This document shows positions 13,293-16,200 of a DNA stretch of 61,252 bases, in pieces. The position numbers and the translations under genes are program-made. Positions within the stretch are counted from its first letter, which is position 1; each line of letters starts with the position of its first letter. Below the pieces are notes generated by a model. The model was not told where the DNA came from, did no database searches, and was given only the letters and a program-made list of their open reading frames with translations. This DNA comes from a virus. Taxonomy: Duplodnaviria; Caudoviricetes. Location: the IMG/VR virus record IMGVR_UViG_3300024310_000009, positions 1 to 61,252 of that record. One strand, 5' to 3'.

Positions 13293-16200
13293 GTGATGCC
13301 CCTACCAATCCCGGCACCGATCCTCAAGCGCCAGCGCCGCGCTCCCCTGGCAGCGTTGCCCGTGGAGCTGCGCCGCCCCTACGCCTACGCCTACGCCAGT
13401 AACAAGGATGTGGGCGGCGCCCTGTTGCTGGCTGGTCCAGCGGCGGCTGTACTGGGCACGAGCGATGCAGACATGAGCGCTCGTGCCGTCATCTCCACCA
13501 TCGACCGGGATCGCGTCGGAGACGAGATGGTTCCCGAGGGTTGTGTCCTCGATCACTACCGCAAATCGCCCGTGGTTTTCTTCGGACACCAGAGCGTCCC
13601 TATCCCCGTTGGTCTCGCGGAACACCCACGCACAAAACTACTTGCCGTGGAAATAGAGCCAGGTCAGCGCGTCATCGCGACGTGCTACTTTCACCAGGCC
13701 AGTCACGAGGGTCCGCAGTTTTTCGAGCTTGTGAAAGCAGGGGTACTGCGTTCCACCAGCATCGGCTTCAACCCTCTGGCCGAGCCACGTCGGTTGAGTC
13801 CGATCCCCGGAAACCTGTATACCGGATACCGCTACGAGAAGTGGGAATTGTTGGAATTTTCCTGGGTAGGGGTGGGGGCAAACCCTTACTGCGGCATCGT
13901 GCGGGAGTACCTGAGCCGAGGCACCATTGCGGGCGAGAAGATCAGCCCGCAGTTGCGCAAGTCCCTGGAGCCGCTGGCAGAGCCGCAGAAGGTGTGGAGC
14001 AACGGCACGGGTAAGGGGTGGTTTTCCTCGTTCTTCGGCAGGTGCGACCGGGACGACGAGGGCCATTGCAAACCGGAGGGTGGTGGAGAAAGCGGCAAGA
14101 AGCCAGAGGAAGGCAAGAAGCCGGAGGGCAAACCGGAGGGCAAGAAGCCGGAAGGCAGTGACAATAAACTTGGCAGCAAGCCAACCAACAGGCCGACTGC
14201 TGAGGAACAGGAACTTTCCAAGAAATATCTTGGCGGCGATTTCAACAATGCGAGTTTGCTTACGGGTGCACCTGGCGGGTCCACCATCAGGCTGCGTGAA
14301 GTAAATGGCAAACTGTACATATCCGTGAAAAACGAAGAACTGGTCGTCTGTACTCGCATCGTGGGAGTGGATAGCAGCGGAAAGAAGTACATAAAGAACG
14401 AAGAGTTTGCCTTGTCGGAAAAAGGCACGGGGCGCGGTACAGAGATATTTGCGTTTCAGGTCGAACAGGCGAGCAAGCACGGGTTTGCTTACCTGACTTG
14501 CAGCGCGGTAGGTGGCGAAGAAGCGAATGGACATTACACATGGCCGAGGCTCGGTTACGATCAGAGCCTCGAATCAGTTGCCAAGCAGAGCAAGCGCGAT
14601 GCCGAGATAGTAGACAGGGCCAGTAAACTGTTCCCGGATGCAAAGTCCGTTCTCGACATTATGTCCACCAAAAATGGGAGAGATTGGTGGAAGGAAAACG
14701 GCGCGGATATGGCACATGCGACCTTTGATTTGAGCAAGGGAAGCCGGTCGCAAAAGATACTGGCCGCGTACCTGGAAGAGAGAAAGACAAAGAAGAAGGA
14801 GTATCCTCATGCCGGAAGAAATCGAACTGAGCGAGGAGGAAGAAGCCGCTCTGGAGCGAGCCTGGGGAAAACTGGGCAGGGGAAGCGAGAACGAGGAAAG
14901 CGAATCGTCGGAAGGAGAGTGAAGGTCAAGGGAGACTGGGAAGAAGGTAAGCACCCCAGAACCGACGACGGCAAGTTCGGTAGCGGCGGGAAACCAGGCG
15001 AGAGCGACTCACCCTCGCAGTCGTCTCAGGACTGGTCTGAGCATGCGGAACCGGAACTGTCCGAGACCTACACGGCGGGACTGAACGAGGATCCCAAGGC
15101 AACAACCGAGGAGGATCTGGCAGCTGCCTTGAAAGACCTCGGCAAGGACGAAGGGTACGACGTAACGATCCTCTACAACCCAGACGAGGAATGGTTTGAG
15201 GTCTGGGACGTGGAGACGGCGAAAGAGCAACTCGGCGAGGGAGACGAGGGAACCGAGGTTTACTCACGCAAGAACCCCGAATCCGGCGAGTGGGAAACCG
15301 GCACGGATGACCAGTTTTATAAGCAAGACCACCCCGAGGAATTCGAGGACGACGACGAAGACGGAAACGGAAACGAGAAGAGGCTCTATCGGAGTCAAGC
15401 GGAAAGGGTGATCCTCTCCGCACACAAGAGACTGCAAAAGAGGGTCACGGCCATGAAACGATACGGCATCCCCCAGCGGAAACTGAGCGAGGGTAGCGGC
15501 ACCGATGGCGGCTATGTCGAGGAAGAACACCACGAGGAACGCCCTTCCGTCGCCTCGGCCATTGCGAAGGCGATGGAAGAAAGCGGGGCGGAAGGTGATG
15601 AGGCTCACTACCACGAGGGCGAGAAGAGTTGTCATCACAAGCACGCGCCCGACGCCGACCCGGAGCACCTCGAAAAGTGCATGAAGTCGCTGTCGGCCAT
15701 CGAAGGCGTCGAGAACGTTCACCAGTCCGACAAGGACCCGGAGGGCGAGGGATGGGAGAAAGCGTATCCCGTTGAGCCGCAGGCAGAACGGCACGAGGCC
15801 GAGATGCCGGAAGAGGAGATGGAAACCAAGAAGCGTTTCCTCCGGCAACTGCCGAAGTCGATCCGCAAGGAAGCAGCCAAGGCTGTCGGCATCTCCCCCG
15901 ACGATCCCGGCATCGGGAAAGAGGACGCCGAGGACCTGGGAGCCGTCGAGGAAGAACCCATCGACATGCCGCACGGCGCCGCGTGCGCTCTGCACTGCCT
16001 GGAGTTCCTCCGCGAGGTGATTCCCACCCTGGAGCCGGAGGTGGAGAAGTTCTTTTCGGACTTACTGGAGAGGGTGGAGAAGTGGGCCGTCAAGCGATAT
16101 CCAGACGCCGATATGGGGATCGAGGCTGTGGAAGCCGAGACCGAACCGGAGGCCGAACCGTTTGCTGGCGAGGAGACGGAGGAGGAAGAGGAAGCCGAGG

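Follow-up and report, generated by a model that had tools for sequence, protein, structure and literature searches.

The nested reading frame in the head polyprotein gene

The window analysed here is the whole of the 61,252-base stretch in the IMG/VR record IMGVR_UViG_3300024310_000009, a Caudoviricetes contig that is complete in the window (linear, estimated completeness 80, G+C 60%). One of its genes, the polyprotein open reading frame (ORF) P0001, runs on the + strand from 13293 to 16601 (1102 codons from GTG 13293; the twin P0003 starts at ATG 13296) and encodes, in this order, an N-terminus resembling HK97-type prohead proteases, a Cys motif, a GNAT-like module of 198 amino acids (aa) (14199..14792, + strand), a basic linker, a tag and a long acidic C-terminal part. 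Within the linker lies a second ORF, P0002 (14809..14922, + strand), which is read in the +1 frame of the polyprotein, has 37 codons, ends with TGA at 14920-14922, and is preceded by a Shine-Dalgarno-like AAGGAG (14796..14801, + strand) with a 7-nucleotide (nt) spacer to its ATG at 14809. The explanation that we favour as a whole is a true dual-coding region from which a peptide would be separately translated and would bind the module; we put its probability at roughly 0.65.

A first-pass annotation, made from the sequence alone, had located the hexamer, the spacer, the ATG and the stop, and these coordinates proved exact, as did the placement of the ORF just before the tag GDWEEGKHPRTDDGKFGSGG (14931..14990, + strand), which follows directly in the main frame. 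A complete start, ribosome-binding site and stop are thus found inside a larger gene and in another frame, as in an overprinted gene. The translation of P0002 is MPEEIELSEEEEAALERAWGKLGRGSENEESESSEGE, and the main frame reads the same nucleotides as the R/G/K-rich KEYPHAGRNRTERGGRSRSGASLGKTGQGKRERGKRIVGRRV. The two products of this DNA have opposite charges, the linker of the main frame (14793..14921, + strand; KKEYPHAGRNRTERGG...GRRV) having a net charge of +12 and the nested peptide (14809-14919) one of -11. The linker is overprinted, of low complexity and unconserved; the main frame stays open through the nested ORF and runs on to the conserved tag. At the junction, in GTGA (14919..14922, + strand), a main-frame GTG at 14919 overlaps the nested TGA, and this GTG may be left over from an earlier start site of the tag-scaffold part.

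As an ORF, P0002 is of ordinary size: 10 kb contain 111 ORFs of at least 30 aa, and the tract in question is purine-rich and open for 62 codons from stop to stop. AAGGAG followed by ATG after 5-9 nt occurs 8 times on the + strand, and at similar spacing the hexamer also precedes the gene starts at 27786 and 58409. Judged by sequence, the nested ORF alone is explicable by chance, while the motif it encodes is far beyond chance. P0002 carries EEIELSEEEEAALERAW, a copy of a motif conserved behind GNAT-like modules (described below), and the hidden Markov model of this motif scores the peptide at 40.9 bits (E 4e-11). The motif core LSEEEEAALERAW (14827..14865, + strand) extends from L7 to W19 of the peptide, and L7, L15 and W19 are invariant across 13 aligned motif copies. 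P0002 matches no Pfam or PHROGs family at E<=0.1.

Codon usage was scored as log-odds, for which 16 long ORFs of the window served as the training set and positions 14700-15000 were excluded. The nested frame (14809-14919) scored 0.44 per codon, as compared with 0.39 ± 0.22 for true frames (n=206 windows), and only 0.24% of shifted windows reach this value. The main frame scored -0.60 per codon, lower than every one of the 206 true-frame windows, as compared with about -0.43 ± 0.24 for shifted frames. Codon usage thus favours the nested frame, which argues that the small reading is the native one and that the basic linker of the polyprotein was overprinted on it.

With respect to expression, no sigma-70-like promoter was found in 13000-17500, and with no promoter-like site nearby the peptide would come from the late polyprotein mRNA. 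The RNA around the nested start is unremarkable in structure (z 0.52). The start of the peptide, MPEEIEL, resembles those of stand-alone homologues, namely MPEEQ.. in locus L038 (TAATG overlap, Shine-Dalgarno sequence GGAGGA) and MPDEIDL.. in L010 (GTG start, Shine-Dalgarno sequence GGGAGG).

Since the record is a metagenomic virus contig, one might suspect that the nested frame stems from two compensating indel errors in sequencing or assembly; nothing specific favours this. Contigs from two public runs (X1, depth 39; X2, depth 5), both of which may be the source sample, equal 14200-15400 with zero differences or indels, and a third, X3, spans just 14200-14566. The main-frame sequence of the database protein P0003 is that of the window polyprotein, long homopolymers are absent at the frame junctions, and identical nesting is seen in contigs of different metagenomes (L017 and L041; L021 and L022). 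An assembly error is unlikely to be the source of the nested frame, and we consider an artefact of this kind hardly credible.

A conserved motif behind the GNAT-like module

A protein search with residues 290-640 of P0001 returned 24 proteins, all of them large and multidomain, that share a module of ~190 aa and join it to MuF, portal, ART-PolyVal, InPase, peptidase or 2H-phosphoesterase domains. In several of these homologues a peptide nearly identical to P0002 lies in frame, 15-45 residues past the module. P0012 carries EEIELSDEDEAALDRAWARLE, which in BLASTP gives 15/20 identities to P0002 (E 6e-8), and P0004 carries EEIDLNAEEEAALERAW twice, with 15/20 and 18/34 identities that are not significant under composition-based statistics; P0008, P0016, P0020 and P0026 also have the motif in frame. 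The in-frame copies behind the module in homologues indicate that the product of the nested frame is a conserved element usually found behind the module. The consensus of this element, EEIxL[ST]xEEExxLxxAW, describes a conserved helix that accompanies the module family.

Using two conserved module peptides as the basis for retrieval, so that divergent modules are under-sampled, alignment of the module retrieved 43 viral and 11 genomic loci. A regular expression for the motif gave 21 matches in the 512,354 aa of the six-frame translation of the window and all fetched loci; all 21 lie on the module strand and all 21 read as motif copies. Seventeen of them are established just past a module end. 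As for the other four, the match in L030 stands behind a presumed second module end, the one in L034 is at the 5' end of the locus with no module in view, and those in L020 and L050 were positioned only by hand. A strict degenerate DNA pattern for the motif found 4 stretches in viral contigs, all on contigs that were already known.

We then surveyed 61 module copies with a C-terminal end, counting a copy as motif-positive if the motif reached at least 7 bits within 450 nt (four motif-positive rows score just 7.1-7.3 bits). The motif stands behind the module in 40 of the 61, in several arrangements: fused in frame in 13, as a separate ORF after the module stop in 14, with the module stop inside the motif in 3 (L010, L014, L015), in the same frame after the stop in 1, and nested, that is, with the module ORF running through the motif in another frame, in 9 rows. 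The rows include duplicates (L017 and L041, identical over 500/500 nt; L021 and L022; L038 and L039; L044, L045 and L046), and the row L008, classed as nested, is a mere 33-codon tail overlap. These counts bear out the first-pass annotation in its expectation that an E-rich ...ALxxAW peptide ORF would be found downstream of homologous modules.

Eleven of the separate ORFs are small (44-86 aa), with an ATG close to the motif and mostly a Shine-Dalgarno-like sequence. Searching with a profile made from the stand-alone ORFs brought up 18 called database proteins of 44-119 aa, which are unnamed or annotated as 'hypothetical protein' and none of which has a Pfam domain. In three loci the motif heads a large next ORF instead: L010 (201 aa), L013 (196 aa) and L016 (~320 aa, with MuF). 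A set of 157 database proteins contains 227 module copies: in 45 of these the motif follows in frame, in 77 the protein ends at most 20 aa past the module, and in 105 it continues without the motif. The association is close to exclusive in this set, as motif matches of at least 10 bits were found directly behind a module in 45 cases and elsewhere in 1 (166,852 residues).

Nesting in relatives and the origin of the overlap

As in the window, the nested frame is +1 in L017/L041, L019, L021/L022 and L024; in L018 it is +2. The module ORF that encloses the motif ORF in the nested relatives runs on for 322-503 codons, and this continuation in L017, L018, L021 and L024 contains a MuF domain above the Pfam curated cut-off, which argues that the main frame of these relatives is real. 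We built a quick maximum-likelihood tree of 51 module rows, from which rows with a profile alignment starting after position 60 were dropped (including L010, L011, L013-L015 and L041) and in which most inner branches are weak. On this tree the nested label requires 4 changes, and the arrangements together at least 11 changes among motif-positive rows. L024 and L021/L022 are sisters (Shimodaira-Hasegawa-like approximate likelihood ratio test 94; branches 0.71 and 0.81) and both are nested. Sequences of different nested lineages can be aligned in the alternative frame (BLOSUM global scores 58, 61 and 35), whereas their main-frame linkers cannot (-4, -2 and -9).

The clearest dual-coding signal in the family, as far as sequence comparison goes, is that of L017 and L019, which share 70% identity over 515 aligned columns and are the only pair at a useful distance; the direct signal of constraint is confined to these two relatives. 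In both, the linker between module and MuF domain contains a nested +1 ORF (L017:611-704, L019:2020-2113) that encodes MHMSKKDSENPPIMTDED[DE]KILD[NE]IWDEID*. Within the nested ORF, 3 of 93 nt are changed between the two loci, as compared with 54 of 174 in its flanks, taken as 150 nt upstream and 24 nt downstream (Fisher p 1.2e-8). An ungapped comparison of 300 nt upstream, with 50% differences, was discarded as misaligned. Read in the nested frame, the three changes inside the ORF give the conservative D>E and N>E; read in the main frame, they give the radical replacements Q>E, Q>R and Y>D.

These data also bear on the possibility that the nested frame is an untranslated relic, left by a helix that was once read in frame, as in P0012 and L009, was then moved out of frame by two indels or by a lost stop and an indel, and is still intact because the event is recent. 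The in-frame arrangement is indeed common (13 of 40 motif copies; 45 of 227 database module copies), the purine-rich DNA is open in several frames, and the native codon usage of the nested frame is equally expected of a recent relic. Against this, nesting needs 4 changes on the tree and includes a deep sister pair, the three invariant residues being kept each time; change between L017 and L019 is suppressed exactly within the nested ORF; and the window keeps a Shine-Dalgarno sequence and an ATG where the stand-alone homologues start (MPEE or MPDE). We therefore consider a relic improbable. The first-pass annotation had suggested that a cassette was captured inside the polyprotein gene and that its small gene was kept as a dual-coding overlap. 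The dual-coding overlap is supported; the capture, which would imply a direction of evolution, is not, and the arrangements change at least 11 times on the tree.

Not all relatives place the motif behind a start codon of its own. In L008, L014 and L015 (L008:1950-2060, L014:2150-2260, L015:2160-2275), where the 90 nt before the -1 frame motif contain neither ATG nor GTG nor TTG, the sequence G/C_AAA_AAG (N_AAA_AAG) stands in the module frame right before the motif, and the module stop lies inside or after the motif. By this sequence arrangement the three loci are candidates for a -1 programmed frameshift, which may add the helix to some copies of the protein. Recoding may thus exist in the family, and one may ask whether the window uses it as well, through a programmed +1 frameshift at CCU-C that would fuse protease, module and helix up to the TGA at 14922 and would do so beside the full-length polyprotein. 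The sequence AAGGAG-UAU-CCU-C, in which an SD-like hexamer ends 3 nt before the shift codon, resembles the prfB site, with its SD-like element at that same distance, and a fused module and helix is natural in 13 relatives. In its codons the site departs from the prfB type, however: the A-site codon CAU is a sense codon, neither a stop nor evidently rare, re-pairing of CCU to CUC is poor, and no stimulatory RNA structure is predicted (z 0.52). Moreover, the hexamer is ideally spaced for initiation at the ATG, with a product that starts like the stand-alone homologues. We regard a +1 frameshift in the window as improbable, slightly more so than the relic, and continue to favour a dual-coding region with its own internal start.

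The module, its predicted complex with the peptide, and the surrounding head genes

The module carries the invariant stretches NG[YH]YTWPRLGYD, GRDWWKENG and FDLxxGSRS. Its family is large, comprising 3619 cluster representatives at E<=1e-3, a number that falls to 1,089 at E<=1e-30, and 2-4 module copies per representative protein are frequent; no Pfam or PHROGs family was found for it, and among INPHARED phages there was one protease-only match to P0001 and none to the module. Polyvalent homologues, including P0045-P0054, carry 2-4 tandem modules, and P0046 has four, each with the motif behind it in frame. Among 16 aligned members, 4 match Acetyltransf_7 (best E 0.0014) and 3 match Acetyltransf_1 (0.0017), all below significance, and a search of the module profile against Protein Data Bank (PDB) sequences gave 4 matches, all of them GNATs, at E 0.29-1.1 over profile positions 49-101. 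The AlphaFold2 (AF2) model of the window module without the peptide is confident (predicted local distance difference test, pLDDT, 92.9; predicted template modelling score 0.88). Its top Foldseek matches in the PDB are all acetyltransferases but weak (E 1.3e-3 to 1.4e-2; template modelling score, TM, 0.25-0.39). VIA, run with the model of the in-frame relative L009, returned almost exclusively acetyltransferases or GNAT folds (Z 5.0-6.7, 91-150 residues aligned), among them TacT2, TacT3, AtaT and the anti-CRISPR AcrVA5. In BFVD, uncharacterised Caudovirales proteins (TM 0.73-0.77) come first and named N-acetyltransferases from rank 13. In GNAT enzymes the pyrophosphate-binding loop, Q/R-x-x-G-x-G/A, follows strand beta4. 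In the module, G78 and G80 (EKGTGRGT) are invariant in 16 sequences and are flanked by a predicted strand and helix. The first-pass annotation had called the module a GNAT domain; sequence and fold lend this weak evidence, without a significant family match.

A complex of the window module and the peptide was modelled in three runs, which gave interaction prediction scores from aligned errors (ipSAE) of 0.78, 0.77 and 0.80, with 0.00 for the best of 3 controls. The ipSAE mark is reached by 58 of 80 solved complexes and by 2 of 110 mismatched pairs, counts that apply here only approximately, since the modelling used our own alignments. The runs share at least 92% of contacts, and the partner has a pLDDT of 67-68. 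The model thus passes its controls, and we take it as support for binding, not as proof. On the peptide side the predicted interface comprises residues 1-8, 10-11, 13-15 and 17-23, and on the module side residues 50, 67-72, 75-78, 80-81, 84, 101-104, 109-118, 155-161 and 186-195. These residues belong to strand beta4, the GxG loop, beta5, the NG[YH]YTWPR loop and the last helix. The peptide is thereby placed on the best-conserved surface of the module: nine of the 26 invariant module residues lie in the interface (N67, G78, G80, A103, G111, T114, W115, R117 and Y191), and the strongest predicted contacts are those to the last helix (residues 186-195). Taken together with motif conservation and codon usage, the complex model upholds the earlier proposal that the nested frame is coding and that its product is a partner of the GNAT-like module before it.

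In GNAT enzymes, acetyl-CoA and the acceptor are bound at the region that corresponds to the predicted interface, and for this reason the peptide would most likely inhibit. In the mechanism that we propose, ribosomes on the late polyprotein gene would read 14793-14921 in the main frame as a basic filler linker, and the internal ribosome-binding site (AAGGAG, 7 nt, ATG 14809) would direct synthesis of the 37-aa acidic peptide, whose translation we infer. The peptide would bind the module in trans, its EEIEL stretch being predicted to lie over strand beta4, the GxG loop and strand beta5, with the L15/W19 face on the last helix of the module. As a tethered or co-expressed inhibitor, immunity-like in effect, it would keep the packaged enzyme inactive in the producing cell, and it would be lost or displaced once the cargo is processed or ejected. 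Taken alone, the claim that the peptide inhibits a packaged enzyme is tentative, its chances being somewhat below even. A fuller proposal is more speculative still: the peptide might act as a 'safety pin' that plugs the cofactor and substrate cleft of a virion-delivered, acetyltransferase-like effector in the producing cell and is shed on cleavage or on threading out of the capsid, in a large unnamed effector-inhibitor family (>3,600 module clusters) whose inhibitor gene would have been repeatedly and independently overprinted in polyprotein linkers, a single piece of mRNA then coding for tether and inhibitor alike.

Several observations weigh against the favoured explanation or parts of it. 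The motif is absent within 450 nt in 21 of the 61 surveyed module copies, which implies that the peptide is dispensable. In L008, L014, L015 and L018 the motif stands in the -1 frame and no start codon precedes it within 90 nt, so internal initiation is not a universal mechanism. Synonymous recoding of the nested ORF leaves the main frame open in 9.2% of cases, and selection keeping both frames open is thus weakly indicated, a mild hint at best. Relatives of P0001 for a synonymous-site test in the window amounted to 2 distant loci each among viral and metagenome contigs. The window module matched 0 Pfam families at E<=1, the GNAT profiles included, and VIA Z scores below 8 are in the range where a match may mean only a common arrangement. 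We accordingly call the module GNAT-like and do not claim a proven GNAT, an affinity with which the weak evidence is consistent. That the peptide covers the acetyl-CoA site is read from the contacting residues of a predicted complex. Lastly, on the sequences, the 13 in-frame fusions and the 3 N-terminal positions would be as compatible with a structural docking helix as with an inhibitor.

Such a helix, under which the nested gene would still be real, could be an integral structural or activating element that completes the module, or one that joins split products, be it a subunit or the next protein such as MuF. It would account for the 13 of 40 motif copies that stand in cis and for the 3 at the N-terminus of large next ORFs. 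In the AF2 model of L009, the motif forms a helix at residues 222-240 with ~83 pLDDT, as expected of a docking helix in cis, and the dominance of contacts to the last helix of the module in the predicted complex can be read in the same way. On the other hand, 21 of 61 modules do without the motif, and the window module, modelled alone, folds at pLDDT 92.9. A disordered linker (residues 192-217 in L009) separates module and helix, and the distance from module end to motif ranges from -1 to 308 nt. The N-terminal part of the peptide is moreover predicted over the GxG loop, beta4 and beta5, which substrate or cofactor would need. We judge a docking role unlikely, if clearly more plausible than either a relic or a frameshift, and prefer a separately made partner that would bind and perhaps inhibit the module. 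A capsid-targeting or cargo-loading peptide, as in encapsulins, was also considered and set aside for the present, since the peptide often occurs unattached as a small protein of its own and is predicted to dock on the module.

The first-pass annotation had drawn a parallel to MuF toxins and their immunity genes. Among 191 MuF toxin genes, 89.4% are followed by an ORF of <150 aa, as given in the main text of Jamet et al. (2017; PMC5576092), in which the words 'GNAT' and 'acetyltransferase' do not occur. The likeness lies in a head-associated multidomain protein with an enzymatic cargo domain and a small unannotated ORF right after it (14 relatives), and relatives of the window module are fused to MuF or portal domains. 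Unlike in the MuF toxins, the window module is internal and not C-terminal, and its small ORF is nested out of frame in the same gene; and unlike MuF immunity proteins, which are separate polypeptides, the peptide is fused in cis in 13 of 40 motif copies and in 45 of 227 database module copies. Of the proposed toxin-immunity relation, the small ORF after the module stop is thus found (14 of 61), while the in-frame fusions and the three N-terminal positions do not fit a classical immunity gene.

A second comparison is with the pairs of a GNAT toxin and a ribbon-helix-helix (RHH) antitoxin (TacAT, AtaRT, KacAT). In KacA-KacT, the C-terminal segment of the antitoxin wraps the GNAT toxin and impairs acetyl-CoA binding (PMC6698736). 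In both cases a short partner segment lies on a GNAT or GNAT-like enzyme, here by prediction, and TacT2, TacT3 and AtaT are structural neighbours of the module (Z 5.5-5.8). The present partner differs in having 37 aa and no Pfam or PHROGs DNA-binding domain, in being encoded downstream of or inside the enzyme gene and not upstream, and in its setting in a virion polyprotein as opposed to an autoregulated operon; sequence similarity of the module to the toxins of GNAT-RHH pairs is undetectable. In genetic arrangement, lambda Rz/Rz1 and phiX174 E within D are closer, each with a small ORF that has its own ribosome-binding site in another frame of a larger late gene and a product functionally linked to it. 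Here, unlike in those pairs, the host gene is a head polyprotein, the overprinted frame is filler, and the small ORF is the older and conserved one; the same partner is also fused or free-standing in relatives, and nesting arose several times.

The third comparison is with polyvalent proteins, in which, according to the main text of Iyer et al. (2017; PMC5512222), GNATs are among the cargo domains predicted to modify proteins. P0001 and its homologues resemble these in that a single polypeptide, encoded next to head or packaging genes, unites several effector domains that are unrelated to each other. Two GNAT families are described there, from gammaproteobacterial prophages and from conjugative elements of Firmicutes, Actinobacteria and Proteobacteria (PMC5512222); their phyletic ranges are different, and the window module may or may not belong to one of them. 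The terms 'immunity protein', 'overlapping' and 'frameshift' are absent from the main text of PMC5512222. We found no description of the pair of module and peptide, or of an overprinted partner in a head polyprotein, in the literature texts searched; the supplements or online tables of PMC5512222 may list the module. By sequence the pair would be a new effector-partner family, in a recurrent and unusual genetic arrangement of known kinds.

If so, a very common unannotated cargo module of phage head polyproteins would gain a partner worthy of a name, one that gene calling systematically overlooks in its nested or very small forms. The family would also provide a natural series for the origin of overlapping genes, since one peptide occurs in fused, separate and overprinted form, the small reading being conserved and the long one filler. 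Should the peptide inhibit, phages would have in it a simple means of transporting a dangerous enzyme without harm, and it would be a ready-made short-peptide off-switch for a GNAT-like enzyme.

The polyprotein gene belongs to a head module at 7.9-20 kb, in which the portal gene, the MuF gene, the polyprotein gene and two capsid genes are adjacent. P0001 itself has no Pfam match at E<=0.01; its residues 72-207 match PHROGs families of 'major head and protease' type, and residues 62-198 match the head maturation protease of phiKM1 (tblastn). The portal gene (7920-11273; PF04860) encodes 1117 aa with a C-terminal extension of ~500 aa, and shares 46 nt (11228-11273), in different frames, with the next ORF (11228-12550), which is without a Pfam or PHROGs family and lies between the portal gene and the MuF gene (12531-13286; PF04233). 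An antisense ORF, 14574-14954(-), has no family match in Pfam or PHROGs, and nothing else favours its reality. Downstream of the polyprotein, two HK97-type major capsid genes stand side by side as paralogues in one head module (17444-18862 and 19100-20161; both PF05065, E 1e-36 and 2e-40).

Two further short elements of the polyprotein recur elsewhere. The Cys motif CDRDDEGHCKPEGGG (~14028-14081; P0001 aa 246-263) adjoins the protease-like region, and L002 is 72% identical there; variants of it (CERDxxGHC..) are found between the modules of P0009, P0010, P0014 and P0019, and also in the motif ORF of L013. The tag after the nested ORF has a second copy at ~11522-11580, in the ORF between the portal and MuF genes, the two forming the near-identical pair DWEEGKHPR[DT]D[SD]GKFGSG. 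Similar motifs, [WF]xxxxH[PH]Rxxx(x)G[KQE]F...GG, occur upstream of modules in P0011, P0015, P0017, P0024 and P0025, and the tags may be processing or docking sites of polyvalent proteins.

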